Below are positions 2,356 to 59,022 of a stretch of 64,000 nucleotides of DNA, in pieces (positions within the stretch are counted from its first letter, which is position 1; every line of letters starts with the position of its first letter). The notes beneath the pieces are model-generated. The model did not search any database, was not told where the DNA came from, and saw nothing but the letters and a program-made list of their open reading frames with translations. This stretch comes from Candidatus Daviesbacteria bacterium RIFCSPLOWO2_01_FULL_39_23 (GTDB taxonomy: Bacteria; Patescibacteriota; Microgenomatia; Daviesbacterales; UBA10151), in assembly GCA_001776935.1 (NCBI GenBank), contig MFDN01000015.1, positions 102,578 to 166,577 on the forward strand, given 5' to 3'. A program made the position numbers and the translations under genes.

Positions 2356-2493
2356 GTCATCCTGAGCAATTAGCGAAGGATCTCTGTTCTACGAAGTAGT
2401 TGCTCTGCAACACTTTTTTCAGACACGTCAATGTTACTTGCATTCGCAAGAGATTCTTCGTACGTTCATGAAACTGAACGTACTCAGAATGAC
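2356..2493. repeat. nested-palindromic intergenic repeat element, copy A. It is bounded by GTCATCCTGAGC and GCTCAGAATGAC and carries the inner pair GAAGGATCTCT and AGAGATTCTTC
   Basis: The terminal 11-mers are inverted repeats with one transition. The inner 11-mers are also inverted repeats. The same architecture recurs at 16271, 19618, 42388 and 45458. Confidence 0.8.
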
Positions 2494-2903: not shown

Positions 2904-3868
2904 AGAAAATAATTTGGTTAGCTATAATCGTTGTATTAATATTTTTTTTGGCAATGGGGTGGTGGAATAGGCAACTTTCTTTTGTTTCTTCAGATAAATC
3001 CGCCAAAGTATTTGTAATCGCAAAAGGAGCTGGGGTTTCGGAAATTGCCAAAAAGCTCAAAAGTGAAGGACTTATTAAATCAGAACTTGTTTTTAAAATC
3101 TATGTTAAACAAAATAACTTAACAAATAAACTTCAGGCAGGCTCGCATAAGCTTTCTCCTTCAATGACTGCGCAGGAAATACTCAAAACTTTGCAGAAAG
3201 GCAGTGAGGACAGCTGGATAACTTTGATTGAGGGCTGGCGGATAGAAGAAATGGCAACCGAGATAAATTCCAAATTCCAAATCCCAAATTCAAAATTTTT
3301 GGAACTGGCAAAAGAGGGATATATGTTTCCCGATACCTACCTTTTTCCTAAAGAAAGCACAGAAGAGCAAATAGTAAAAAAACTAAGAGAAACTTTTAAT
3401 ATAAGATACACAGATGAGATAAAAGCGAAAATAAAGAAATTGGGTTTAACAGAAGAAGAGGGGGTAATTTTGGCATCCATAGTAGAAAGAGAAGCCCGTT
3501 CTGATGGGGTAAGGCAAATGGTGGCCTCGATTCTTTTAAAAAGATTTAAAATCGGAATGGGTTTGAATGCGGATGCAACAGTTCAATATGCTTTGGTTCC
3601 AAAGGGGTCGAAAAATCCGCCAGCCGGCGGATGGTGGAAAAGACACTTGTCCAGAGAGGATCTTAAAATAGATTCCTCATATAATACTTATATTCACAGA
3701 GGTTTGCCTCCGGCACCGATTGCAAATCCGGGGGTTTCATCATTAAAAGCAGTAGCAGAGGCTGATTCTTCCACTCCTTATCTTTATTATTACCATGATT
3801 CAAAAGGAAATTCTTATTATGGTAAAACTTTAGAAGAGCATAATCAAAATATAGCTAGTTATCCATAA
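2900..3868 (+). CDS. mltG: endolytic murein transglycosylase MltG (YceG-like)
   Basis: N-terminal TM followed by the YceG-like signature SYNTYIHRGLPPAPIANPG. The 4-bp overlap with ruvX indicates coupling. Confidence 0.85.
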   Translation: MKKIIWLAIIVVLIFFLAMGWWNRQLSFVSSDKSAKVFVIAKGAGVSEIAKKLKSEGLIKSELVFKIYVKQNNLTNKLQAGSHKLSPSMTAQEILKTLQKGSEDSWITLIEGWRIEEMATEINSKFQIPNSKFLELAKEGYMFPDTYLFPKESTEEQIVKKLRETFNIRYTDEIKAKIKKLGLTEEEGVILASIVEREARSDGVRQMVASILLKRFKIGMGLNADATVQYALVPKGSKNPPAGGWWKRHLSREDLKIDSSYNTYIHRGLPPAPIANPGVSSLKAVAEADSSTPYLYYYHDSKGNSYYGKTLEEHNQNIASYP

Positions 3869-4074
3869 CTTTATTGACACTTTTGGTCGCAAAAGTGTCC
3901 AAAACTCCTGCAAGTGATGTTCGAGCTAAAAACTCTTCGCTCGTTAACGGGGGCTCACCCCCTCGGATATTCACTAATCGTTCAGTATCCGGTTCCCCCT
4001 GTTGCCTCGCTCCGAGTTTTTTTAACGCTCTCTGCATCAATTGCAGTAATAAATAAGCTATAATCCTAATAATT

Positions 4075-4488
4075 ATGAACAAATTTTGGGGTAAAGTTAG
4101 AAAACATAATCAAAGAGGAAAGAAGCTGGGTTTTCCTACTGCCAATGTAAATTTGAGGAAAAAAATCCCGGAAGGAATATATATTTCTCAAACTAAGATA
4201 GGACAAAATTTATTTCCATCACTTACTTTTATCGGCATTGCCAGGACTTTTGAAGAAAAAAACTTTCGTGCAGAAACCTATATTTTGGATTTTGAAAAAA
4301 ACATTTATGATAAATGGATTTCGGTTAAATTGATAAAAAAAATCCGGGATAATAAAAAATTTTCCTCTATCCCGGAGCTGATTGCTCAAATGGAAAAAGA
4401 TGAGCAGGTAGCCAGAAAATATTTTAAAATGAAAGAGGGTTTGTATGAATTAGGTATGAAAATACCAAAATTTGAAAGATTTGGTTGA
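4075..4488 (+). CDS. riboflavin kinase (monofunctional RibF C-terminal domain-like)
   Basis: GKKLGFPTANV motif (riboflavin kinase PTAN) and a C-terminal KIRDNKKFSSIPELIAQMEKD that resembles the RibF C-terminus. Confidence 0.7.
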   Translation: MNKFWGKVRKHNQRGKKLGFPTANVNLRKKIPEGIYISQTKIGQNLFPSLTFIGIARTFEEKNFRAETYILDFEKNIYDKWISVKLIKKIRDNKKFSSIPELIAQMEKDEQVARKYFKMKEGLYELGMKIPKFERFG

Positions 4489-4524: not shown

Positions 4525-5691
4525 ATGTTCAAAAAACAGGAAAATATTTTAGAAAAAATTTATGATTCTGCGCTTAGATTTCTAACGCCGTTAAGCTTGG
4601 AAGAAACTTATGAGTTGATAATCAAAGAGGCTTTAAGGTTAGTTAAGGCAGAATTTGGCTCAATTTTCCTTCCTGAGGATGGGGAATTTAAAAGGGTATA
4701 TACTAACAATCCAGCGCTTCTCAACATCAAAGTCAGGAAAAAGGGGGTGACTTATAAAGTATTCCAAACCGGAATTCCCACAGTAGTTCATGCAGAGACT
4801 CTTCGCCGGGTTCATCCATATAAATCATTCGGGATTGAGGTAAGATCTGATGTGGTATTGCCGCTTTCGACCAAGGGCAAACCATTTGGAGCTTTAAGTT
4901 TAATGTCAGCTAAGGAACACAGTTTTACTGAGCAGGAATTAGAGTTGTTGAAATTTTTCGGGCCTTTTGCCAGTTTGGCTATAACTAAAGCCCGGCTTTA
5001 TCAGGAGACAAAAGAGGCTTTAGAGGCACGTTCTGTTTTTATTTCTATGGCTGCACACGAGCTTAGGACACCAATTACCACTATATATGGGTATGCTCAA
5101 TTATTAGAAAGGAAAACTAACGGCACAAAAGAAATTGAGGGAAAGTGGATAAAAGAGCTGCATACAGAGACTCATAGGCTGTCGCTGCTGGTAAATGATT
5201 TATTGGAAATCAATAGAATTAATTCTGGTCACTCCCATTATATTTTCAAAAGTTGTAACCTGAAAAATATTATCGATGAAGCTATTAAAACTTTTAATAA
5301 GGATCACCCTAATAGGGTAATGCTTGTGGAAGATGAAACTAAAGAAGAGAAATGTAATGTTATCGGAGATTTCAATAAATTGCTTCAGATGATTTTAAAT
5401 TTATTAGATAATGCAGAGAAATTCTCCGCTAAAAATATTATTCTTAAACTGAAATATCAAAAATCGGATTATATTATTCAAATTCAGGATAAAGGAGAAG
5501 GTATTGGAGAAAAAGATATCCCTAAGTTGTTTGAAGTTTATCAAAGGGGCAGCACTGACAGGGAAGGAATCGGATTAGGTTTGTTTTTGGCTAAAAATAT
5601 TATCGAAAGGCACAGGGGTTCAATCGATATAAAATCAAAACGGGGAAAAGGTACAATTGTAACATTAAGATTTCCGAGAATCCGTTTATAA
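4525..5691 (+). CDS. sensor histidine kinase with an N-terminal GAF-like sensor domain and a HisKA plus HATPase_c core. No response regulator is adjacent
   Basis: H-box MAAHELRTPITTIYGYAQLL. N-box LLDNAEKF. G-boxes DKGEGIGEKD and GIGLGLFLAKNII. Confidence 0.85.
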   Translation: MFKKQENILEKIYDSALRFLTPLSLEETYELIIKEALRLVKAEFGSIFLPEDGEFKRVYTNNPALLNIKVRKKGVTYKVFQTGIPTVVHAETLRRVHPYKSFGIEVRSDVVLPLSTKGKPFGALSLMSAKEHSFTEQELELLKFFGPFASLAITKARLYQETKEALEARSVFISMAAHELRTPITTIYGYAQLLERKTNGTKEIEGKWIKELHTETHRLSLLVNDLLEINRINSGHSHYIFKSCNLKNIIDEAIKTFNKDHPNRVMLVEDETKEEKCNVIGDFNKLLQMILNLLDNAEKFSAKNIILKLKYQKSDYIIQIQDKGEGIGEKDIPKLFEVYQRGSTDREGIGLGLFLAKNIIERHRGSIDIKSKRGKGTIVTLRFPRIRL

Positions 5692-5726: not shown

Positions 5727-7157
5727 TTATGTGACTTCGTTTTTCTCTATTAAAGGGGGATTATTTAAGACAATAATTGTGTCTTCTTCGGGATTCTTTG
5801 TATAAGTTTTTCCAACCTTTTCCATTATTCGTCCAGAAGCGAGAATGATTAAAAAATCGTGAATTGATTTTACTAGTCCTCCGCCTAAAAGCCTGGTTGT
5901 TTCTATATTCTCTTCTATTAATTTTTTGAGTATAGGATTACCTATCTCGTTGATAAACTCAGATTCGATTTTTACAAACACCTGATCTGTTGCTTTTCTG
6001 CCTATTGTTGCGCCTACTGCTGCTATAGCATAAATATAGTTCAAAGCGTTAATTATTTCTTGAGGTATATTAAGATTCAATCTCTGATTTGTATCTCTGT
6101 ATTGGGATTTTAACACTGCTGCTATAGCTGTTATAGTTGCATCAACCTGTTCAACACTGCCCCCTTTGGGGGTTTCTTCCAATTTTTCATAAGAAGAAAA
6201 AGGGCGTAATCCCAGTGTTGATGCTAACCTATTACAGGTTTCTAAACCTGAACTATCCCTTGTTTTTATCGTTTCCTGCACTTGTTGACGGAGTTCCACA
6301 TATAGTTTCATTCTGGGGCCTGGTAACATGCCGACATAGCCAATATGTACAAACTTACTGATATCCTCAAAATCCAGCAATCCTTCACTTAAGCTTCTTA
6401 CCATGTCTACCCCAAATGTCCTATACCGTGTATTTGTAAATTCTGGTTCTTCTGTCTTTGTAAAGGGTTCGCTTAGCAGTTTTTTTAAACCGGCAGCTTG
6501 TTCTTCTTCTGGGGCAGTAATCCCGGGTTTATCAATGATAAGTAGCTTATACGGTGTTCTAGTTCTAAGTTCACGCGCTAAATCGATTTTAATAGCAACA
6601 TCGTTAACGCAAAGAAATTCCAGCGGATAAGGCTTATCGTGTTGAATTTGGCCGGGGAGCCTGAGTAAATTACCTACTATATTTGGTACATACTTTCCCC
6701 ATTCATCCATTGTTTTGAGCCCTGTCCATTTGGCTATACCGACAACCAAGGCGTTGAACTTTACTTTCAGTTCGTTAGGCAAATCATCGCCTACTTCGAT
6801 ACACTTTTGTACGTCTCTTATCATAGTTAATTCTCTTCTTTCTATTGCATCCCAACCGATCACTTTTATATCGGGTACATATGAATTTTCTATCTCCTGT
6901 GCTCTTAATTGTGCATAAGGCAAAATAAGGCTATTTGCCAGAGTGGTTTTGCCTGCACCTCCCGGACCTTCAATAAATAGGGCATGAGCAGTAGATTCTC
7001 CGGTTTGAATATAGCGATCCATGAACCTGCTCATAAAAACATCAAGTCCGGGCATTCCTGATGCATAGTAAATCCTTTCATAAACAGCCATTCTTTGTTC
7101 CAGATTTGTGCGCTCTGGGTGGCTGTCAATATGTTCAAGTTCAGGTTGTCTGCTCAT
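5727..7157 (-). CDS. uncharacterised P-loop protein. The N-terminal domain resembles thymidylate or deoxynucleoside kinases and the C-terminal domain of about 250 aa is unknown
   Basis: Walker A in FIEGPGGAGKTTLANSL, which is close to the TMK/dNK motif FEGxDGAGKTT. A possible Walker B in LLIIDKPG. The remaining 300 aa have no recognisable motif. Confidence 0.5.
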   Translation of the reverse strand: MSRQPELEHIDSHPERTNLEQRMAVYERIYYASGMPGLDVFMSRFMDRYIQTGESTAHALFIEGPGGAGKTTLANSLILPYAQLRAQEIENSYVPDIKVIGWDAIERRELTMIRDVQKCIEVGDDLPNELKVKFNALVVGIAKWTGLKTMDEWGKYVPNIVGNLLRLPGQIQHDKPYPLEFLCVNDVAIKIDLARELRTRTPYKLLIIDKPGITAPEEEQAAGLKKLLSEPFTKTEEPEFTNTRYRTFGVDMVRSLSEGLLDFEDISKFVHIGYVGMLPGPRMKLYVELRQQVQETIKTRDSSGLETCNRLASTLGLRPFSSYEKLEETPKGGSVEQVDATITAIAAVLKSQYRDTNQRLNLNIPQEIINALNYIYAIAAVGATIGRKATDQVFVKIESEFINEIGNPILKKLIEENIETTRLLGGGLVKSIHDFLIILASGRIMEKVGKTYTKNPEEDTIIVLNNPPLIEKNEVT

Positions 7158-15782: not shown

Positions 15783-16255
15783 GAAGTAAAAAAGCACCAA
15801 AAAATCTTTTATCTCCTGATCCAATTTTTGGATCAAGACTGCTTACCCGTTTTATAAATAAAGTAATGGAAGATGGGAAGAAATCCATTGCTCAAAAATT
15901 GGTTTATCAGGCATTGGAAGAAATAAAAGAACAGTCCAAAGAGGAGCCTTTGGTTGTGTTCGAAAAAGCTATTAATAACGTTGCGCCAAAAATGGAAGTT
16001 AGACCCCGCCGCGTTGGGGGAGCTTCATATCAGGTTCCTGTTGAAGTAAGGGGAGACAGAAAAGAAGCCTTAGCGATCAGATGGATTCTTGCAGGCGCCA
16101 GATCCAAGTCTAATAGCCAGTATCATTCGTTTGCTAAAAAGCTGGCGGCAGAACTTATGGATGCAGCCAATAACGCCGGTATTGCCATCAAGAAAAAAGA
16201 AGATGTGCAAAAAGCAGCTGCAGCCAATAGGGCCTTCTCTCACTTCCGCTGGTAA
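15779..16255 (+). CDS. rpsG: 30S ribosomal protein S7
   Basis: Canonical S7 sequence. Overlaps the rpsL stop. Confidence 0.95.
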
Positions 16256-16270
16256 CCATCTCTTTTCCCT

Positions 16271-16371
16271 GTCATCCTGAGGCGATTGGCCGAAGGATCT
16301 CTGAACTTGTTTCAGTTGCATTAATGTAGCTTATATTCATAAGAGATTCTTCAGCTTTGCTTCAGAATGAC
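16271..16371. repeat. nested-palindromic repeat element, copy B, running from GTCATCCTGAGG through GAAGGATCTCTGAACTTGTTTCAG and AGAGATTCTTCAG to CTTCAGAATGAC
   Basis: Same architecture as copies A and E. Lies immediately 3' of rpsG and abuts the GIY-YIG gene. Confidence 0.8.
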
Positions 16372-16373
16372 AA

Positions 16374-16667
16374 TTAGGGGTTAGATAGATCTTTGAATTC
16401 AGGATTAATTGTTTTTATTAAGTCCATTTTCTTTCTTCTTGTCCAGCCTTTAATTTTCTTCTCTGCCGCTATTGCCTCATTAATAGCTGAAAACTCCTGA
16501 TAATAGATTAATTTATTTAACTTATATTTGGATGTAAAAGAAGATATGGCTTTGAATGAGTGCTCAGAAATTCTTCTTTCCAGATTATTTGTTACTCCAA
16601 CATATAAGTTGCTTGATTTGTTAGTCAGGATATATACAAAATAGAAGATGACTAAATTGTATCTCAA
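16374..16667 (-). CDS. GIY-YIG nuclease family protein (UPF0213/YhbQ-like, 97 aa)
   Basis: VYILTNKSSNLYVGVTNNLERRISEH matches GIY-(10)-YIG with catalytic Arg and Glu. Confidence 0.85.
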   Translation of the reverse strand: MRYNLVIFYFVYILTNKSSNLYVGVTNNLERRISEHSFKAISSFTSKYKLNKLIYYQEFSAINEAIAAEKKIKGWTRRKKMDLIKTINPEFKDLSNP

Positions 16668-16674
16668 ATGAATT

Positions 16675-16711
16675 GAGAGATCCTTCGTCGACTCTGTCTC
16701 CTCAGGATGAC
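16675..16711. repeat. half-copy (C) of the palindromic element: AGAGATCCTTCG...CTCAGGATGAC
   Basis: Matches the right-half pattern of copies A, B and E. It forms the right terminal inverted repeat of the GIY-YIG cassette. Confidence 0.7.
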
Positions 16712-17086
16712 AAAAAATAGTTAAAGCATCTTAAATGGCAGCCGGAATGGAAATATCTGTTGAAGTGGTATGGTAATATATAATAACTATGGCTGAAAGA
16801 GATATTGGGAAAGGGCCGTTAGAGAGGATAATAGGGAAAGATCTTGGTGGGTTTGATGTTCCAGATAAATTAGAGTCGGCTTGCAGGATGGATTCATCTG
16901 AGTTGGAAATTTTAGCAGGAGCGCAGCGCCTGCCTGATCCCGCTGATAGTCCGGATTTAACACTAACTTCCAGGCAAATTGCACATAAAAGAACCAGAAA
17001 TGCTGTGCCACCTTTGAGATTAGTGCCATATTGGCGCCATTAATTGATTTGACTTTTAGGATCGAAGAAGTATAATATTGACAGTT

Positions 17087-17114
17087 GCCTCCCGGAGAAT
17101 GAGGGAGGCTTTTT
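17087..17114 (+). terminator. Rho-independent terminator-like hairpin GCCTCCC-ggagaatga-GGGAGGC followed by a T5 run
   Basis: 7-bp GC-rich stem followed by TTTTT. It closes the unexplained 16713-17077 segment. Confidence 0.6.
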
Positions 17115-17122
17115 GGATAAAT

Positions 17123-17350
17123 ATGGATGATAAATTAAGACAAGAAAAATTAAAGATGTGGAAGGCTAATTTAGCTGATCTGGAAGAGCAGTTAAAAATT
17201 ATTGCGCAAAAAAAAGGCGCTGCTGCTGCAGAGGGAGATTTATCTGAAAATGCGGCTTATTCTATGGCTATTGAAGATGCAGAGACAACCAGAGTAAGAA
17301 TTGGGGAAGTGAAAAAGATAATAAGGGATTTAGAGAAAGGAAGCAAATAA
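17123..17350 (+). CDS. stand-alone GreA/GreB N-terminal coiled-coil domain protein (about 75 aa) with no C-terminal FKBP-like domain
   Basis: EGDLSENAAYSMAIEDAETTRVRIGEVKKII matches the Gre-factor coiled-coil tip motif GDLKENAEY. The ORF track's earlier start at 17078 would run through the terminator hairpin. Confidence 0.6.
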   Translation: MDDKLRQEKLKMWKANLADLEEQLKIIAQKKGAAAAEGDLSENAAYSMAIEDAETTRVRIGEVKKIIRDLEKGSK

Positions 17351-17470
17351 TTTTCAAGAATCAATTCTCAATTTTCAATCAAATCTCAATGTGACAATTT
17401 TCAAACATTGAAAATTAAGCAATTGAAAATTCATTGTAAATTGTAAACTGAAAATTGTAAATTTCTTATT

Positions 17471-19609
17471 ATGGCTATACAAAAAACCAAAAGAGATTTT
17501 CCGCTGGATAGGATCCGTAACATTGGTATTATTGCTCACATTGATGCCGGAAAAACCACCACCACTGAGCGGATTTTGTTTTATACCGGAAAAACTTACA
17601 AAATCGGCAATATTGACGAAGGAACTACTGTTACTGACTGGATGGAGCAGGAGCGCGAGCGCGGGATCACCATTGTCTCAGCGGCCATCACAGCTTTTTG
17701 GACTGTTAAAAAAGGTCAATTTGAAGGTGAAGAAATGAGAATCAATTTGATTGATACTCCGGGCCATGTTGATTTTACTGCAGAAGTAGAACGATCTTTA
17801 AGAGTTTTGGATGGGGCAGTAATTGTTTTGGATTCCTCTTCCGGCGTACAGTCTCAAACAGAAACAGTTTGGAGACAAGCGAATAAATATAATGTGCCTT
17901 TAATTGCTTTCTCTAATAAGATGGATGTGGTAGGCGCAGATTTTGTTGCTACTATCCAAAGCGCCCGGGATAGACTTGGGGCCAACGCTATTGCTTACAA
18001 TCTGCCGATAGGCAGGGAGAATGATTTTAAAGGGGTGGTCGATTTATTAACTGAAAAAGCCATAATTTGGGAAGGTGATGAAACAGGTGCTAAGTTTCAT
18101 GAAACAGAGATACCGGCTGATATGATTGATGCGGTTAAGGTTGCCCGGGAAAAATTAGTAGAAGAAATCTCCGGTACTGACGATGTATTGATGGAAAAAT
18201 ATTTAGGCGGAGAGGCAATTACGATTGAAGAATTAAAAATAGCTTTAAGAAAAGCTGTGATTGCCAATAAAATTGTGCCTGTCTTTGCGGGCTCCTCCCT
18301 TAGGAATAAAGGTGTCCAACCAATGTTGGATGCGGTTGTTGAATATTTGCCATCGCCTCAGGATATCTTTACAGTAACCGGTATAAACCCGAAAACAGGT
18401 GAAGCAGAAGAAAGAAAAGGTGAATCCAGCGCGCCTTTGGCTGCTTTGGCTTTTAAAATTCAGGTTGATCCGCATGTAGGAAAATTAACCTATATCAGAG
18501 TTTATTCAGGCACTTTAAAGAGTGGTTCTTATGTTTACAATGTGACCAAGCAACTCAGGGAAAGAGTCGGCAGACTGCTTTTGATGCATGCTAATGACAG
18601 GGAAGAGATTGATGAGGCATTTGCAGGAGAAATAGTGGCAGCAGTAGGTTTGAAGGATACTATTACCGGCAATACACTTTGTGATGAAAGCGCTCCAATT
18701 ATTTTAGAATCTATAAGTTTTCCGGATCCGGTAATTTCCCTGGCAATTGAACCTAAGACAAAGAGCGATCAGGAAAAATTAGGTTATGCGCTGCAAAGAC
18801 TGGCTGAGGAAGATCCGACTTTCAGGGTAAAATCCGATCCTGAAACCGGGCAAACTATTATTGCCGGGATGGGTGAGCTGCAGCTTGAAATTTTGGTTGA
18901 CCGGATGAAAAGAGAGTTTAAGCTGGAAGCGAATGTGGGACAGCCGCAGGTGGCTTACAAAGAAACAATTACTAAAATTGCAGAAGGTGAAGGAAAATAT
19001 ATCAGGCAGACAGGGGGCCGGGGCCAATACGGACATTGTTTACTGCGGATCGAACCTTTGCCGCGCGGAACCGGCAGGGAGTTTGTGTCGGAAATTGTGG
19101 GCGGCGCCATCCCCAGAGAATTTATTTCACCGATTGAAAAAGGTGTTATTGAAAAAGAAGACACAGGTATTTTGGCAGGTTATCCTGTAACTGATATTAA
19201 AGTGGCAGTATATGACGGGTCGTTCCATGATGTTGACTCTTCCGAGGTAGCATTTAAGATTGCTGCATCTTTGGGGCTTTCTGAGGCAGCTAAAAAAGCA
19301 GATATGATTTTGCTAGAACCTATTATGAAAGTGGAAGTTACTACCCCGGATGAGTTTTTGGGAGAAATTATTGGCGATCTTTCTTCAAAAAGAGCGCAAA
19401 TTCTTTCTTCTGAAACCCGCGGAAATGCCAGGGTTGTGGTAGCTTTGGTGCCTTTGGCAGAAATGCACGGTTATGCAACAGCTATAAGGAGCATGTCTCA
19501 AGGAAGAGCCACATATTATATGGAAGCAGATCATTATGAAACCGTTCCTCAAAACGTTACTCAAAAGATTATAGAATCCTCAGGCTTCACAGGACGCGTT
19601 GAGCATTAA
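17471..19609 (+). CDS. fusA: translation elongation factor G
   Basis: G domain [15 protein letters not shown] and DTPGHVDF, with full domain II-V conservation. Confidence 0.97.
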
Positions 19610-19617
19610 TCATCTAT

Positions 19618-19720
19618 CGTCATTGCGGGGAATTTTTATCTTTCTTCTTCCGTCATTCCGAACTTGTTTCGGAATCTCTTTTGGAATACTAGAGATCCTG
19701 AACTAAATTCAGGATGACGG
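19618..19720. repeat. degenerate palindromic element copy D, reading CGTCATTGCGGGG ... CGTCATTCCGAACTTGTTTCGGAATCTC ... AGAGATCCTGAACTAAATTCAGGATGACGG
   Basis: Shares the GTCAT-CCGA, CTGAACTTGTTTC and TCAGGATGAC motifs with copies B and E. Sits between the fusA stop and the second GIY-YIG gene. Confidence 0.65.
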
Positions 19721-19721
19721 T

Positions 19722-20009
19722 TTAAAGTAAGGAATCATGCAGATCGTTAAAGTCCGGATTATTTCTTTTAATCAAGTTAATTTTCCATTCTCTATGCCAA
19801 TTTTTTAGCTGCTTTTCTCTTTTGATAGCTTCAATAATATCTTCATAGATTTCATAGTAAACAAGTTTGTTTACGTTATATTTGGAAGTAAAACCGGAGA
19901 CCACTTTCATTTTGTGTTGATAGATTCGTTTAATTAAGTTATCAGTTACCCCAATATAGAGAACGGTATTTATCTCATTCGTAAGAATGTAAACATAGGA
20001 ATATCTCAT
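19722..20009 (-). CDS. GIY-YIG nuclease family protein (95 aa), second copy
   Basis: YVYILTNEINTVLYIGVTDNLIKRIYQHK. Paralogous to 16374-16667. Confidence 0.85.
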   Translation of the reverse strand: MRYSYVYILTNEINTVLYIGVTDNLIKRIYQHKMKVVSGFTSKYNVNKLVYYEIYEDIIEAIKREKQLKNWHREWKINLIKRNNPDFNDLHDSLL

Positions 20010-20020
20010 ACCTATATTGT

Positions 20021-20062
20021 AGAGATTGCTTCCCCGGGATCAAGTCCGGAGTCGTAATGACG
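20021..20062. repeat. degenerate right-half-like element D': AGAGATTGCTTC ... GGAGTCGTAATGACG
   Basis: Resembles the right half of copy F (AGAGATTGCTACGCTAATCGCTCGCAATGAC). Flanks the second GIY-YIG gene on its 5' side. Confidence 0.5.
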
Positions 20063-20137
20063 TTTTTAGCCTCAGACTTCACGGGCCGTGTTAAACATTG
20101 ACTTGACAATTAATTGTGACTCCTCCATCATAAATGT

Positions 20138-20359
20138 ATGAGCAAAATTTTGGAAATTATTGTTTCGCTAGGATTAATAGCATTTGGTTTAAGTTGTTTT
20201 TTAAATCCTAAATTTTATAAAGAGTTAGTAAAAGCGATAAATGCAGGTAAAGGTCTGAGGACCACAATTACCCCACAAACTACCCAGATAGGAAAAGGGG
20301 TAGGAATCATAGCAATTATTATTGGTACCATTATATTTCTTATTACACTTTCTAACTAG
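20138..20359 (+). CDS. small two-TM membrane protein, hypothetical
   Basis: 73 aa with two hydrophobic helices. No homology recognised. Confidence 0.4.
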   Translation: MSKILEIIVSLGLIAFGLSCFLNPKFYKELVKAINAGKGLRTTITPQTTQIGKGVGIIAIIIGTIIFLITLSN

Positions 20360-42369: not shown

Positions 42370-42387
42370 AATTTCTCCGTAATTGCG

Positions 42388-42457
42388 AGGAGTCTTACGA
42401 CGAAGCAATCTTGAGTAATAATTAATAGAGATTGCTACGCTAATCGCTCGCAATGAC
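42388..42457. repeat. palindromic element copy F. The right half is intact (AGAGATTGCTACGCTAATCGCTCGCAATGAC) and the left half is degenerate
   Basis: The right half differs from copy E (AGAGATTCTTCGCTAATCGCTCAGAATGAC) at only 3 positions. Confidence 0.65.
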
Positions 42458-43445: not shown

Positions 43446-43519
43446 CGGGGAGTAGTATAGTGGTAACACGCCGCGCTGGGGGTGCGGCATCGGGAGTTCG
43501 ATTCTCCCCTCCCCGACCA
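43446..43519 (+). tRNA. tRNA-Pro (anticodon GGG), CCA-encoded
   Basis: Acceptor stem CGGGGAG/CTCCCCG. T-arm GGGAG-TTCGATT-CTCCC. Anticodon stem CCGCG/TGCGG with loop CTGGGGG. Discriminator A followed by CCA. The D-stem has one A:C mismatch. Confidence 0.85.
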
Positions 43520-45457: not shown

Positions 45458-45547
45458 GTCATCCTGAACATAGTGAAGGATCTCTGAACTTGTTTCAGAT
45501 GGATCTAGAATAAATCTAGAGATTCTTCGCTAATCGCTCAGAATGAC
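45458..45547. repeat. nested-palindromic repeat element copy E (90 bp), reading GTCATCCTGAAC ... GAAGGATCTCTGAACTTGTTTCAG ... AGAGATTCTTCGCTAATCGCTCAGAATGAC
   Basis: Full copy. It shares 24 consecutive nt (GAAGGATCTCTGAACTTGTTTCAG) with copy B. Confidence 0.8.
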
Positions 45548-50273: not shown

Positions 50274-51491
50274 CTAGAAAGGATTTTTTGATAAATTAGT
50301 CAGAAAAAATAACTTAATCCATTCTTTGGAAATAGGTACTCCTGTTAGAAATGGAAAAATTAAAATAAAACTGATAATAAATAAAAGTAAAATTATAAAT
50401 GCTAATTTTCTTTTTTCCTTATCCTCAAGTAGCGCATTAAGCATGTGACCTAATACAAGACTTAAGAAGGGTACAGACGGGCTAAAATGGTACAGAAACA
50501 TAATTCGGGGAGATGCAGCCCATGGTAGCCAGAAAGCAAAAAATCCCAGTAAAATTATTGCTAAATTTACAGCTTTTTTTCTAATTGCCTCTAAAACAGT
50601 CAAAATTATCGCAATTCCACCTGCCCAAAAAACTGCCGGATTGCCTGAGGTGAAAATATTGGCCATGGTGTCTTTTTGGTAATCTACAAAATACCAGACT
50701 GGATATAAATTAAGGGGCCATGACCACCAGGGCGATGCATAGCCGTGTGTGGCTTTTAGTCCGGTATGATACCACCACATTTGCTGCTGCAGCTGGATAA
50801 ATTGATCAATAGTATGTCCCAGCAGAAAAAAAGGCAAATAACTAATCAGATAGATAATAGGTGGAATAAAAACAAAAAACAAAATCTTTAAGTATTGTTT
50901 ACTAAACAGTAATAAAGGTATAAAAATGAGGTAGGAATAAACAGCTGCCCATTTGCTGGATAAAGCCAGCCCTAAAACGATTGCAGAAAGCAAAAATCGT
51001 TTATTTAAAAAACAATAGATTGACCCCAGTAAAAAAGTGACAAAATAAATATCATTCATGCCGGTGCGGGATTGGACAAAATTAAGACCGTCTAAAGAAA
51101 ACACAAAAGCGGAAAGCAAGGAAGCAGTTTGATTTTTTAAAAGCTTTAACCCCAAAAGATAAATTAAATAGACTGATAAAACTCCAAGCAAGGCTCCCGG
51201 TAATCTGTATGCCCAGGCATTTTCTGTTTTGAAAATAAACATGGAGACAGTCATTATTTCTTTAGCAAGAGGCGGGTGGGTCCATTCATAAGCTACTCCC
51301 GGGGGAGGTGTAGTCCACCATTCCCATGCTTCTTTTGAGCCTTTTAAATATTCTTTTGCAGTAAATGCATGATAAACCTCATCAAAAACATATTTGTTTG
51401 GGTAATCAAGTCGAAACAAACGTAAGAAGGCAGTTAAAAGTAAAATGATTATTAAGATATGTTTTGGTTTAAGTTTCGGAAGATATGGCAT
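50274..51491 (-). CDS. PMT/GT39-like (ArnT/PMT_2 family) membrane glycosyltransferase
   Basis: First-loop FDEVYHAFTAKEY (the DE motif of PMT/ArnT-type GT-C enzymes) and 10 or more TM helices. Confidence 0.65.
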   Translation of the reverse strand: MPYLPKLKPKHILIIILLLTAFLRLFRLDYPNKYVFDEVYHAFTAKEYLKGSKEAWEWWTTPPPGVAYEWTHPPLAKEIMTVSMFIFKTENAWAYRLPGALLGVLSVYLIYLLGLKLLKNQTASLLSAFVFSLDGLNFVQSRTGMNDIYFVTFLLGSIYCFLNKRFLLSAIVLGLALSSKWAAVYSYLIFIPLLLFSKQYLKILFFVFIPPIIYLISYLPFFLLGHTIDQFIQLQQQMWWYHTGLKATHGYASPWWSWPLNLYPVWYFVDYQKDTMANIFTSGNPAVFWAGGIAIILTVLEAIRKKAVNLAIILLGFFAFWLPWAASPRIMFLYHFSPSVPFLSLVLGHMLNALLEDKEKRKLAFIILLLFIISFILIFPFLTGVPISKEWIKLFFLTNLSKNPF

Positions 51492-52680
51492 AATTTTTTA
51501 TTATACTAATAACGATTAGGATAAAGAGAATCGTTGAAACTAACGATAACCCTTTGCTGTTGGTATCTAGAAAATTATATATGATTGGATTATAGAGCAC
51601 CTTAGGTAATTTAAAATAGAATTCGTTGTAATAAACATAGACATAATACAAGTTTAAGAAATGTAGTAAACTCAATATTCCGGTTAACACCAGTAACAAT
51701 TTAGATTTATATGTAACAGCCACAAGTATCAGAAAAACTAATCCAGGATAGAGATATCTTTCATGGACACGAGTTGGTAAAAAGAAAAACCCCAGTGTTG
51801 CAAGAGCTGCCAATACATAAACGGATAACTGTTTCTTAAGGTATAAATACCCGATTATTATCCAATAGCCTGCCAATAAGATATATCCCCAGCTTTGGTA
51901 GGATATGTCATTCCAAAGTGTGACATCGGGAATCCAAAAGCCTACTGCCCCCCAGAAATTATAAGCAAATAAAGAAGTAACAGTATATTGGCTTGCGGTA
52001 GTTATTATCAAATTAATAAGACCGATTAAGGAATAAGTAAAAAAAGGTAAAGAGAATATAAAGAGAATAATTAAAAAGGGCAGAACTATTTTAATTATAT
52101 TTCTGGTAGAAAAATTGGCTATACTAAATAAAAAATAGACAGGTATTATCGCGATTGTTTGCGGTTTTATTAACAGAGATATCCCAAGCAGTAAGGATGA
52201 AAGAATTAATTTTTTATTTTGAAGAAAATCAATCGTCAGAAAAAGAGAAAGAGCGAGGATGCTGTCAATTTGTCCCCAAATAGAACTATTAAATATTAAA
52301 GCCGGATTTAGAAAAATTAAAAAAGCTGCTAATTTTGCGTAAAACCCCGGTACAATTTGTTTTAATTTTAAATATATTAGTGCACCTAAAATTATTTCAG
52401 CAAAAATCGCGGGGAGTTTAAGTATTAAATAAAAAGTCGGATTATCTATTTGTAGCAAGTTTTTTACAAATACCAATAAACTTAGGATATACATATAACC
52501 AGGGGTATAATCGCTAAAAACCTGATTACTGTAAAACTTACTAAAACCCACTTCGTCAAGCCTTAGAGCCCAGGCAAACCAATCATCAGTATCTATTTTA
52601 AACCCGGGTACATTGGCTAATACCAGCCTGATAGTCAGCCCCCCTATCACCAGAAAAAAAAGGAAGCGATATTTTCTCAT
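51469..52680 (-). CDS. polytopic membrane protein, GT-C-like (DUF2029/mannosyltransferase-like)
   Basis: 11 or more TM helices. A first extracytoplasmic loop with D-rich DTDDWFAWALRL. Overlaps the upstream gene by 23 bp. Confidence 0.5.
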   Translation of the reverse strand: MRKYRFLFFLVIGGLTIRLVLANVPGFKIDTDDWFAWALRLDEVGFSKFYSNQVFSDYTPGYMYILSLLVFVKNLLQIDNPTFYLILKLPAIFAEIILGALIYLKLKQIVPGFYAKLAAFLIFLNPALIFNSSIWGQIDSILALSLFLTIDFLQNKKLILSSLLLGISLLIKPQTIAIIPVYFLFSIANFSTRNIIKIVLPFLIILFIFSLPFFTYSLIGLINLIITTASQYTVTSLFAYNFWGAVGFWIPDVTLWNDISYQSWGYILLAGYWIIIGYLYLKKQLSVYVLAALATLGFFFLPTRVHERYLYPGLVFLILVAVTYKSKLLLVLTGILSLLHFLNLYYVYVYYNEFYFKLPKVLYNPIIYNFLDTNSKGLSLVSTILFILIVISIIKNYAISSET

Positions 52681-54614: not shown

Positions 54615-55570
54615 CGACAGGTAAAACAGATTTGGCCTTAAACCTTGCTAAAAAATTTAACGGAGAATTATTATCTTGCGACTCAAGGCAGGTTTATCGG
54701 GGGCTGGATATTGGGACTGGAAAATATCCAAATTTAAATATCAAATATCAAATATCAAATATCAAAAAGAGGAAAGCGCATTGGGAAATAGAGGGGGTTA
54801 AAATCTCGATGTATGATGTGGCTGATCCAAAAAAACAATATACGGTTTATGATTTCATAAAAGACGCAACCCCAATCATTGATGATATTTTAAAAAGAGG
54901 AAAACTTCCTATTATAGTAGGGGGTACTGGGTTGTACTTAAAAGCTTTACTTGAGGGTATTCCTAATTTGGGAATCCCGGTTTCGGAGAAATTAAGGATG
55001 CAGCTGCAAAAACTTTCTAAAGATGAGCTGCAGGGAAAATTACAACAAATAGCTCCTGATAGATGGGAGCGTATGAATTACTCGGACAGACAAAACCCCA
55101 GAAGGTTAATCAGGGCAATAGAGATTGTCATTCAGCTCACTGTAAACAAGCTCAGGACTCAGGATGACAAAGGTAGAAGTCAAAATGACACTTACGTTTT
55201 AAAAATCGGATTAACTGCACCGCGCGATATTTTATATCAAAGAATCGATAAGCGGGTTATCATCAGGGTTAATCAGGGGATGATTGATGAAGCACAGCAG
55301 TTACATAAGAGGGGCCTGAGTTTAAAAAGAATGAGACAATTGGGGCTTGAGTATGGAGTTTTAGCTGATTTTCTGGAGGGCAAAATTAAAAGTAAGGAGG
55401 AATTGATTAAAGTATTGCAGGGCAAAATTCATGGTTTTGCCAGAAGACAGCTTACTTGGTTTAAGAAAGAGAAAAATGTATCTTGGGTTGATACAGAAGG
55501 TAGAAATTATTTCCAAAAAGTAGAGAATTTGATTTGTAAATGGTATGATAATCCTATAAATGTCGCATAA
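54566..55570 (+). CDS. miaA: tRNA dimethylallyltransferase with a lineage-specific insert that contains a perfect 7-bp x4 tandem repeat
   Basis: P-loop GPTSTGKTDLA and SCDSRQVYRGLDIGTGK, with a conserved C-terminal half. An insert NLNIKYQISNIKKRKAHWEIEGVKIS is present. Confidence 0.9.
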   Translation: MTLINNTRLVVILGPTSTGKTDLALNLAKKFNGELLSCDSRQVYRGLDIGTGKYPNLNIKYQISNIKKRKAHWEIEGVKISMYDVADPKKQYTVYDFIKDATPIIDDILKRGKLPIIVGGTGLYLKALLEGIPNLGIPVSEKLRMQLQKLSKDELQGKLQQIAPDRWERMNYSDRQNPRRLIRAIEIVIQLTVNKLRTQDDKGRSQNDTYVLKIGLTAPRDILYQRIDKRVIIRVNQGMIDEAQQLHKRGLSLKRMRQLGLEYGVLADFLEGKIKSKEELIKVLQGKIHGFARRQLTWFKKEKNVSWVDTEGRNYFQKVENLICKWYDNPINVA

Positions 55571-56540: not shown

Positions 56541-56838
56541 GGGGCCTGGGAAGAAGGATAATCGGTCCGCCTTTGGCGGACAGGAAAGTCCAGACAGCAA
56601 AAAGCAGGGTGATCTGCGTAAGCAGGTAGCCGTAAGGCCTAGTTAGAGTAACAGAAACGATCTGGGTGACGCCAGCTGAAACGACCAAGTGACTGGGTAT
56701 CCCGCCTTAAGGCGGGAGGACAATCCTCCCCGCTGCAATCCTAGAATCAACAGAGCCGCTTGCTCAATTGTTGTAATCAGGAGCATTAGATAAATGATTA
56801 TCTTGAAACAGAATCTGGCTTACTATCTTCCTAGGCAA
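56541..56838 (+). ncRNA. rnpB: RNase P RNA, bacterial type A, reduced in size (about 300 nt)
   Basis: P4 5' strand AGGAAAGUCCAGAC and P4 3' strand ACAGAAUCUGGCUUAC. P2 is GAUAAUC/GAUUAUC. P3 hairpin GUCCGCC-uuu-GGCGGAC. P1 is GCCUGGGAAGA/UCUUCCUAGGC. P5 region GCAGGGUG. A TATAAT lies at 56531-56536. Confidence 0.75.
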
Positions 56839-58701: not shown

Positions 58702-59022
58702 CTAAAATATTCTTAAATTCAGAAGATTGTTTTTTAAGAGAAAAAATAATGAAATTTGCGCTCCGATAGCCATAGAGGAAAGTATTAAAATTTTTGCCAA
58801 GTCGTGGCGTAGGTAAGCGAAATCGGTTCGGAACGACTCGGAATGACTCGGTGCGCCAGAGTATTGGTGTGTTAGAATTCCAGTTCCGGTTAACTGATTC
58901 TCCGATTTAACTGGTTCTCCGATTCTTTCTGAGTTTTCTGAATTCTTCCCATAGACTTGTCTGCGCAGTATTTGTAAGCGTTTTTCCAGGTCTGAAAGTT
59001 TTGCAGTTTGTTGGTATGCCAT
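58702..59022 (-). CDS. hypothetical small protein with a C-terminal hydrophobic helix. The coding status is uncertain
   Basis: The ORF contains low-complexity direct repeats (a 17-bp x2 repeat at 58890-58923). No homology recognised. Confidence 0.25.
   Translation of the reverse strand: MAYQQTAKLSDLEKRLQILRRQVYGKNSENSERIGEPVKSENQLTGTGILTHQYSGAPSHSESFRTDFAYLRHDLAKILILSSMAIGAQISLFFLLKNNLLNLRIF

Follow-up and report, generated by a model that had tools for sequence, protein, structure and literature searches.

Outward-facing hairpin repeats and two candidate ssn genes in a Daviesbacteria genome

The window analysed here, the whole stretch of 64,000 nucleotides (nt) from a Candidatus Daviesbacteria bacterium of the Candidate Phyla Radiation (CPR), holds a family of palindromic repeats and, lodged among them, two minus-strand open reading frames (ORFs) for small GIY-YIG proteins, the candidate genes ssn-1 and ssn-2. 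An initial annotation of the sequence had listed seven repeat copies (A to F, with D'), all of which are present, and both pattern statistics and a covariance model confirm that the family is real. Contrary to its description as a nested palindrome of 90-140 bp, the true repeat unit is a single arm of 28-45 nt, made up of GTCAT, a hairpin and ATCTCT; arms lie in both orientations, with 10 clean and three degenerate ones in the 64 kb. Doublets A, E and F and the doublet within D are ORF-less pairs of arms with their GTCAT heads facing outward. The two genes lie between arms, ssn-1 between B and C and ssn-2 between D and D', and had been overlooked, the family having been described without associated genes. 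The features are given below; the covariance model that scored them was trained on 104 arms from other genomes and two from the window itself.

2356-2385, + strand: left arm of doublet A, class 2, GTCAT-CCT-GA-GC[AATTA]GC-GA-AGG-ATCTCT; covariance model 23.3 bits, E=0.0012
2386-2448: centre of doublet A, collinear with the B and E centres, plus a 24-nt insert
2449-2493, - strand: right arm of doublet A, class 2 (ATTCT/AGAAT), with a 9-bp distal stem GTACGTTCA/TGAACGTAC; covariance model E=0.59
16271-16302, + strand: left arm of doublet B, class 2 (ATCCT/AGGAT), also the outer arm of the ssn-1 unit on the stop-codon side
16301-16315: central headless hairpin of doublet B, CTGAACTTGTTTCAG, common to B and E (30 nt, 93%)
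16342-16371, - strand: right arm of doublet B, class 2 (ATTCT/AGAAT), 2 nt from the ssn-1 stop codon
16374-16667, - strand: candidate ssn-1, 97-aa single-domain GIY-YIG protein with a TTG start; PF01541 E=8e-18
16676-16711, - strand: arm C, class 2 (ATCCT/AGGAT), 8 nt upstream of the ssn-1 start, in gene-sense orientation
19619-19650, + strand: truncated arm GTCATTGCGGGG... (degenerate; read directly), probably the remnant of the inverted partner of D'
19652-19679, + strand: left arm of doublet D, class 1, canonical and like the CGTC-tagged and NTS repeats discussed below, CGTCAT-TCCGAA-CTTGT-TTCGGA-ATCTCT; covariance model 47 bits, E=1e-9; flagged as terminator-like after fusA
19691-19718, - strand: right arm of doublet D, class 1, 3 nt from the ssn-2 stop codon; covariance model 39.3 bits, E=1e-7; the doublet folds as a cloverleaf
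19722-20009, - strand: candidate ssn-2, 95-aa single-domain GIY-YIG protein; Pfam PF01541 E=2.9e-18
20021-20061, - strand: arm D' (ATTAC...GCAAT; degenerate), with one A·C mismatch on its own strand and a long inner hairpin CCGGACTTGATCC; weak partial covariance-model match
42379-42412, + strand: left arm of doublet F, class-2 variant ATTGC/GCAAT (degenerate), head GTA instead of GTC; an insert relative to four relatives
42427-42457, - strand: right arm of doublet F (ATTGC/GCAAT); covariance model E=0.0028
45458-45485, + strand: left arm of doublet E, class 2 (ATCCT/AGGAT); covariance model 33.2 bits
45484-45498: central headless hairpin of doublet E, CTGAACTTGTTTCAG, common to B and E
45518-45547, - strand: right arm of doublet E, class 2 (ATTCT/AGAAT), 13 nt upstream of the homology-supported rny start (45561)

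The two predicted proteins are 52% identical, and PF01541 spans residues 9-81 of the ssn-1 product and 4-78 of the ssn-2 product, with no further domain in either. Both match TIGR01453 at 17.8-21.9 bits, against a cut-off of 56. The ssn-2 product is identical to ACD_38C00165G0019 and has 5119 homologues; its Y7, Y18 and E65 stand one residue off the published catalytic Y6, Y17 and E64, a correspondence by position only. The ssn-1 product keeps every invariant column of the family alignment, with a one-residue deletion ahead of the YxG motif; its gene has no ATG start (TTG was inferred), and the gene calls of the public record (L081) leave a 534-nt interval around it empty. Each gene is flanked by inverted arms whose heads face outward, ssn-1 by C (16676-16711) and the left arm of B (16271-16302), and ssn-2 by D' (20021-20061), 11 nt upstream of its ATG, and the remnant at 19619-19650, with the D doublet in between. 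Arm D' also contains a promoter-like site, TTGATC-16-TACAAT at 20016-20043(-), by consensus match only; the conserved loop CTTGAT supplies its -35-like hexamer, and its second hexamer ends 7 nt before the ssn-2 ATG.

The arms stand out statistically within the window. The outer 11-mer GTCATYCTGAR, at up to one mismatch, matches 11 times against 3.2 expected (none of 100 shuffles scored as high), the inner 11-mer GAAGRATCTCT 11 times against 2.7, and a gapped pattern combining the two six times against 0.00. The covariance model recovers nine arms at E<0.01 and a tenth at E=0.59. All 10 clean arms begin with GTCAT, and every arm in the window ends in ...AT-C-TCT, with the C directly after the palindrome; in other genomes this column is fixed by the GTCAT...ATC search anchor, and the evidence for it is confined to the window arms found with other patterns. 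A naive finder for GTC, any hairpin and C gave 38 matches against 48.8 expected in shuffles, and was used solely for positional enrichment around ORFs. Divergence among the copies is moderate, and they occupy five separate loci over 43 kb, 9-15 nt past stop codons or just ahead of start codons; the placement after sortase, rpsG and fusA is as first described, and E lies between recX and rny. Doublets A, B and E align collinearly from end to end, central part included, and were therefore copied as units.

Some details of the earlier description required correction. Doublet F begins at 42379 (GTAATTGCGAG...) and not at 42388, and D, taken as one copy at 19618-19720, consists of two parts, a truncated arm (19619-19650) and after it a complete doublet (19652-19718). 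The 11-mers said to be common to all copies are exact in A, B, E and the single arm C, but D, D' and F carry variants (ATTCC/GGAAT, ATCCTGAA/TTCAGGAT and ATTGC/GCAAT). Likewise, the hairpin CTGAACTTGTTTCAG does lie centrally in B and E, but in D the related CCGAACTTGTTTCGG is the arm's own hairpin.

Two classes of arm can be distinguished. Class 1, with an 8-bp stem and a CTTGW loop, is represented in the window only by the D doublet. Class 2, GTCAT-NNN-GA-[stem-loop]-GA-NNN-ATC, in which the three variable pairs covary, covers seven arms of the window, with further ones among the ATTGC variants; in eight of the 10 clean arms a 5-bp outer stem leads to a tandem GA/GA internal loop and then to a distal stem-loop that varies (arm length 28-45 nt). 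The GA/GA step of these arms sits in a Y-GA-R context, which favours tandem sheared G·A pairs in DNA. The transitions reported between left and right arms are real, but they pair within the arm (left ATCCT...AGGAT, right ATTCT...AGAAT), and because the C/T and G/A differences are matched in this way each arm is a perfect hairpin alone. The accompanying argument that the two arms would still pair in RNA through G:U wobbles holds for half of the differences only, as either strand of a cross-arm duplex has one G·T wobble and one C·A mismatch.

The same arms recur beside homologous genes in distant genomes. A scan of one genome per species yielded 80 loci whose proteins are 50-69% identical to that of ssn-2, in Proteobacteria, Campylobacterota, Bacteroidota, Cyanobacteria, Spirochaetes, Actinobacteria, Elusimicrobia, CPR and other groups. 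By eye, most of them show GTCAT-hairpin-ATCTC shortly upstream of the gene and the inverse just downstream. Counted over the 80 genomes, 57 forward GTC...C hairpins lie upstream and 48 reverse ones downstream within 200 nt of the ORF, against about three per 200-nt bin elsewhere; 73 loci have full flanks, with an upstream forward arm in 44, a downstream reverse arm in 41, both in 35 and any in 54. At two loci (L032 and L047; homologues 57-59% identical) the gene is flanked by GTCATTCCCGCGMAVGCGGGAATC, the exact core of the Neisseria hairpin repeat NTS.

The structure of the arms was examined with GTCAT-N16-18-ATC as the sole fixed sequence. This anchor has 155 sites in 60.6 kb near the ORFs and 63 in 297.6 kb elsewhere; all six inner pairs left free by the anchor are Watson-Crick at 103 of the 155 sites, which between them have 26 distinct stems. 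Among 106 distinct arms, 96.8% of cells are paired (79.8% when shuffled), double changes occupy 164 cells against 43.9 shuffled, and slid registers are all paired at 50% or less; covariation therefore bears out a conserved structure, and one that lies within the arm. The consensus is Y-GTC-AT-N6-CTTGW-N6'-AT-C-Y-M, with GTC invariant, a Y before GTC in 93 of the 106 aligned arms and no conservation of the 5' flank. By minimum-energy folding, doublet D comes out as a cloverleaf and A, B, E and F as a long hairpin across the two arms, so that folding is not decisive by itself; covariation drawn from separated arms settles the matter in favour of the hairpin within the arm. The within-arm hairpin is thus the conserved structure, kept by compensatory change across phyla, with the head, the CTTGW loop and the first base of the tail fixed.

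Arm class is also related to the type of protein encoded. Class 1 alone occurs at 47 of the 80 loci, class 2 alone at 15 and both at none, and proteins from class-2 loci are closer to ssn-1 (Mann-Whitney p=0.001 by identity and p=6e-5 by bit-score difference, uncorrected for kinship). Class 2 also flanks ssn in Moraniibacteriota, Christensenellaceae, Omnitrophota, Latescibacteria and Elusimicrobia. This pattern suggests that arm classes and protein subfamilies may form cognate enzyme/site pairs.

Class-1 arms were seen as well on viral-classified contigs of IMG/VR, where GTCATCCTGAACTTG...ATC occurs 40 times in 34 stretches (L174-L207), its 3' half being perfectly complementary in 34 of the 40. 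No ssn homologue is encoded in any of these 34 stretches. As 34 of the 40 arms are perfect, they hold too little variation to be used as a sample for wobble pairs.

Homologues of its RecA and sortase place the organism within Candidatus Daviesbacteria, and comparison with related genomes shows the sites of the repeats without them. At the rpsG junction a relative (L083, 79% nucleotide identity) has a 58-nt spacer where the window has 533 nt holding B, ssn-1 and C. In four Daviesbacteria the acylphosphatase start overlaps the upstream stop (ATGA) at the acylphosphatase/exonuclease junction, where the window has a 104-nt insert with doublet F, and the same four lack doublet E in the recX-rny spacer. 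Between sortase and ruvX the genes overlap or nearly touch in four relatives, against 152 nt holding doublet A in the window, so that all four tested sites are empty in close relatives. In addition, no ssn homologue was found in 87 control loci (540 kb) around fusA and recA of relatives, and the covariance model gave three weak arm matches in 86 of these loci (536 kb), the relatives' equivalent regions. Set against this, some 10 arms in 64 kb is indeed the unusual density, like that of repetitive extragenic palindromes (REPs) or miniature inverted-repeat transposable elements (MITEs), that the initial annotation had noted. These comparisons support well the view that the units were gained by insertion at tight gene junctions. 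Doublet A is bracketed by a 7-nt direct repeat, ATGATAT, whose copies at 2338-2344 and 2503-2509 leave gaps of 11 nt on the left and 9 nt on the right; it may represent a target duplication, and a 5-6-nt repeat lies near B/C.

Several other rearrangements were observed around the same genes. A second copy of the final fusA codons lies downstream of the insertion (window 20068-20100 against 19577-19609), where an 11-codon relic with its own stop follows D'. In L083 a 63-nt copy of the fusA end (5862-5924 against 4577-4639) follows a different 1.2-kb insert, which carries a 115-aa ORF and a DUF433-like/PIN-like pair; the 11 differences between this copy and the functional fusA end are all synonymous. 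Such copies suggest either that a foreign 3' end of fusA comes in with the cargo or that this end serves as an attachment-like site. A further sequence (L082; ERZ4903055 k141_3274231) matches the window at 99.5% identity between 24009 and 17519, a point inside the fusA 5' end beyond which it is wholly different, with other rpsG/rpsL alleles and a 133-aa ORF; the break is either a recombination breakpoint or an assembly chimera. In many relatives (L084-L162) the EF-G match of about 700 residues extends over 2.5-3.1 kb, compared with 2.14 kb in the window, which points to inteins, introns or extra domains inserted into fusA in other lineages. Two Daviesbacteria (L168 and L169) have an HNH_repeat ORF at 3622-4470 between the exonuclease-family gene and recA, and their acylphosphatase is separated from the exonuclease-family gene by a PspC-like gene and another ORF; the acylphosphatase/recA neighbourhood thus takes up different insertions in different lineages.

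The remaining candidates and structured elements of the window can be dealt with briefly. An 11-mer inside miaA (55158-55168) that resembles the Ssn-related motif discussed below was rejected as chance, there being no protein insertion by eye, no covariance-model match and a number of matches that fits chance; a match at 58837 is likewise chance. The arm-like hairpin GTCATTCCAAAGTGTGACATCGGGAATCC at 51899-51940(+), antisense within a 403-aa ORF (51469-52680, minus strand; covariance model E=0.14), could be chance or an intragenic arm. The bacterial class A RNase P RNA at 56546-56838(+) (112.7 bits, a short 293-nt match to a 367-position model) and the tRNA-Pro(GGG) at 43446-43519(+) are unrelated to the repeats.

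The closest counterpart of the arrangement is the Ssn system of Neisseria meningitidis (Chenal et al. 2025, PMC11893778). SsnA (NMV_0044) is a 94-aa single-domain GIY-YIG protein (CDD cd10448) that binds NTS (CGTCATTCCCGCGMAVGCGGGAATCYRG) as single-stranded DNA (ssDNA) only, and not as double-stranded DNA (dsDNA), as RNA or on the reverse strand. It cleaves a few nt upstream of NTS, again requiring ssDNA and failing on RNA and dsDNA; cleavage depends on the three bases that precede the palindrome, and binding most of all on the C that follows it (PMC11893778). An Ssn-related motif (SRM) lies near 71% of ssn homologues and on both sides of 42%, and the authors noted that the NTS-ssnA-NTS layout resembles an insertion sequence, likened it to REPs with their REP-associated tyrosine transposases (RAYTs), and raised mobility only as a hypothesis (PMC11893778). 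The window shares with this system the single-domain GIY-YIG protein of about 95 aa, the oriented (C)GTCAT head, the C right after the palindrome, the mostly intergenic repeat-gene-repeat layout with inverted arms, and hundreds to thousands of homologues across phyla. It differs in that the host is a CPR bacterium, outside the RefSeq-based surveys, that the arm stems are AT-rich and mostly carry a GA/GA loop, and that arms also form heads-out ORF-less doublets copied as units. The published SRM pattern, HGTCWYN(0-2)YYVSBRHN(0-5)WNVSBRGN(0-2)RNCYNB, has no match in the window and matches at 10 of the 80 ssn loci; it misses the window arms because only G/C-rich inner stems and loops no longer than 5 nt satisfy it, and it is an operational search string and not a biological definition.

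The arms also resemble the CGTC-tagged REPs, which have a CGTC or TGTC head, 8-9-bp stems opening with AT and loops of 4-5 nt, include dRS3 of Neisseria and RPE-4/-6 of Rickettsia, and fall into families CGTC-1 to -4 (Di Nocera et al. 2013, PMC3733652). Di Nocera et al. concluded that these REPs are without a dedicated enzyme (PMC3733652). The class-1 window arms (19652-19679 and 19691-19718) fit in head, stem, loop and short unpaired tail, as do most arms at the 80 loci, and inverted dimers are frequent in both sets. The eight class-2 window arms, on the other hand, agree in head and AT opening but not in stem and loop lengths, and stand outside the four families; published tails are mostly CCA compared with CTC(T) in the window, and CPR bacteria were not sampled (PMC3733652).

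A more distant parallel is the system of RAYTs and their REP doublets (REPINs), the comparison drawn also in PMC11893778, which has short tagged hairpins, inverted doublets that form a longer hairpin, a gene between inverted repeats and an enzyme acting on ssDNA hairpins. RAYTs, however, are Y1 HUH enzymes of the IS200/IS605 type with the tag GTAG, whereas the present elements have a GIY-YIG protein and the head GTCAT. GIY-YIG nucleases cut by hydrolysis and are not known to pass through the covalent intermediate on which strand transfer by HUH enzymes depends, and Ssn is not known to carry out any transposition chemistry. Free-standing GIY-YIG homing endonucleases (Seg, I-TevI type) share the catalytic domain and the insertion between conserved genes, but have an added DNA-binding domain and cut dsDNA, and Rfam finds no intron here.

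Taken together, the elements are very probably Ssn-related DNA-hairpin motifs, NTS-like and equivalent to CGTC-tagged REPs, with two resident ssn genes. Several observations weigh against this identification or against what it implies. The genes ssn-1 and ssn-2 are candidates, and a sequence search gave no PDB or NCBIfam match for either protein; membership of the Ssn/SRM group would rest on shared anatomy instead of the published operational definition. The GA/GA loop and 5-bp outer stem of most window arms match no tested Ssn substrate, ssn-1 combines its TTG start with no obvious ribosome-binding site and is uncalled in the public record, and the strand-specific wobble test in stems (9 G·T against 4 A·C) is not significant. 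As for movement, there is no consistent target-site duplication, with nothing convincing at E or F; a protein identical to that of ssn-2 occurs only in the same genomic context; and mobility itself is inferred.

How such a unit might work can be outlined from the published homologue. On single-stranded DNA, Ssn would bind the folded arm, solely on the strand that carries GTCAT, and would nick it a few nt 5' of the head, leaving dsDNA and RNA uncut. With the heads facing outward, there would be two nicks just outside the unit, on opposite strands. Indirect support for this predicted one-strand action on ssDNA may be seen in the inverted placement of the asymmetric head, loop and tail. By analogy with REPIN/RAYT, repair or copying from the outer nicks could spread both ssn units and ORF-less doublets, and scattered arms could make incoming or exposed ssDNA cleavable and so affect recombination, as in Neisseria. 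The spreading role and the ssDNA-cleavage role are not mutually exclusive.

It is possible, and we propose it tentatively as falling somewhat short of an even chance, that the ssn units and doublets are an actively mobile family driven by a GIY-YIG ssDNA nuclease, a REPIN/RAYT analogue built on an unrelated enzyme, in which hairpin subtype co-evolves with nuclease subfamily (GA/GA-loop arms with ssn-1-like and CTTGW-loop arms with ssn-2-like proteins). The four empty sites, the doublets copied whole and the correlation of arm class with protein subfamily are consistent with such a family. Alternatively, Ssn and the scattered arms could be a domesticated host system that restricts or shapes recombination of incoming ssDNA during natural transformation, its arms no longer moving. 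This would agree with the transformation phenotype published for ssn in N. meningitidis (Chenal et al. 2025, PMC11893778), with arms placed around the core genes rpsG, fusA, recX/rny and ruvX, with the moderate divergence of the copies and with the single genomic context of the identical ssn-2; but gain by insertion, as indicated by four sites empty in the closest relatives and the absence of ssn from the same regions, and the copying of doublets as whole units fit it less well, and we consider domestication rather unlikely, while noting that it is compatible with a mobile family. It is far less probable that the elements are ordinary MITEs mobilised in trans by a transposase, DDE-type or other, that is encoded elsewhere, with the GIY-YIG genes as passengers or favoured neighbours. 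Terminal inverted repeats, non-coding doublets, presence/absence polymorphism and the ATGATAT repeat near both ends of A would suit MITEs, but the association of arms with ssn across 80 genomes of many phyla and the way arm class follows protein subfamily would not, and neither would E and F, where consistent target-site duplication is missing; moreover, the arms are internally palindromic with structural covariation, of which plain terminal inverted repeats have no need.

The initial annotation had hinted at a folded RNA as the selected form; on such a reading the nested palindromes would be transcribed hairpins of untranslated regions (for processing, stability or termination) that tolerate G:U wobbles. 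The elements do lie close after stop codons or before start codons, the doublets fold well (z -2.2 to -6.2), and one arm with the T-run after fusA is flagged as terminator-like; most arms, however, have no following T-run. Compensation takes place within the arm, while cross-arm pairing leaves a C·A mismatch on either strand, and between the two ends of an ssn unit the conserved head (GTCAT), loop (CTTGW) and tail switch strands (35 of 73 loci), so that a single transcript cannot carry both arms in the conserved sense. Rfam matches in the window at the gathering threshold are limited to the RNase P RNA and tRNA-Pro, with none even at E<=1 in 16200-20150, and the characterised Ssn, which needs ssDNA, does not bind RNA (PMC11893778). 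A structured RNA is accordingly a most improbable account. The view that the copies are functionless, decaying remnants of a single local duplication, without conserved structure or positional preference, has next to no likelihood: degenerate copies do exist (19619-19650, D' and the GTA head of F), but the same head, hairpin and tail stand beside homologous genes in dozens of phyla with compensatory changes, the copies occupy separate loci far apart, and the pile-up of arms at ssn, the anchor test and the pair counts refute it.

The Ssn/NTS-SRM system itself has been known since 2025; what is new is an example of it in a Daviesbacteria (CPR) genome, which is neither a new kind of element nor a structured RNA. 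The published system explains the finding, and no new question is opened by it. The additions are modest: the CPR host, GA/GA-loop arms that the published pattern misses, heads-out doublets copied whole, and four empty sites. As AT-rich and GA-loop arms escape that pattern, the spread of the family has probably been underestimated. The candidate enzyme/site pairs, with their different hairpin architecture, may be of interest for Ssn-based ssDNA tools, and the clean empty sites together with the doublets copied whole provide comparative evidence on the mobility of ssn units.

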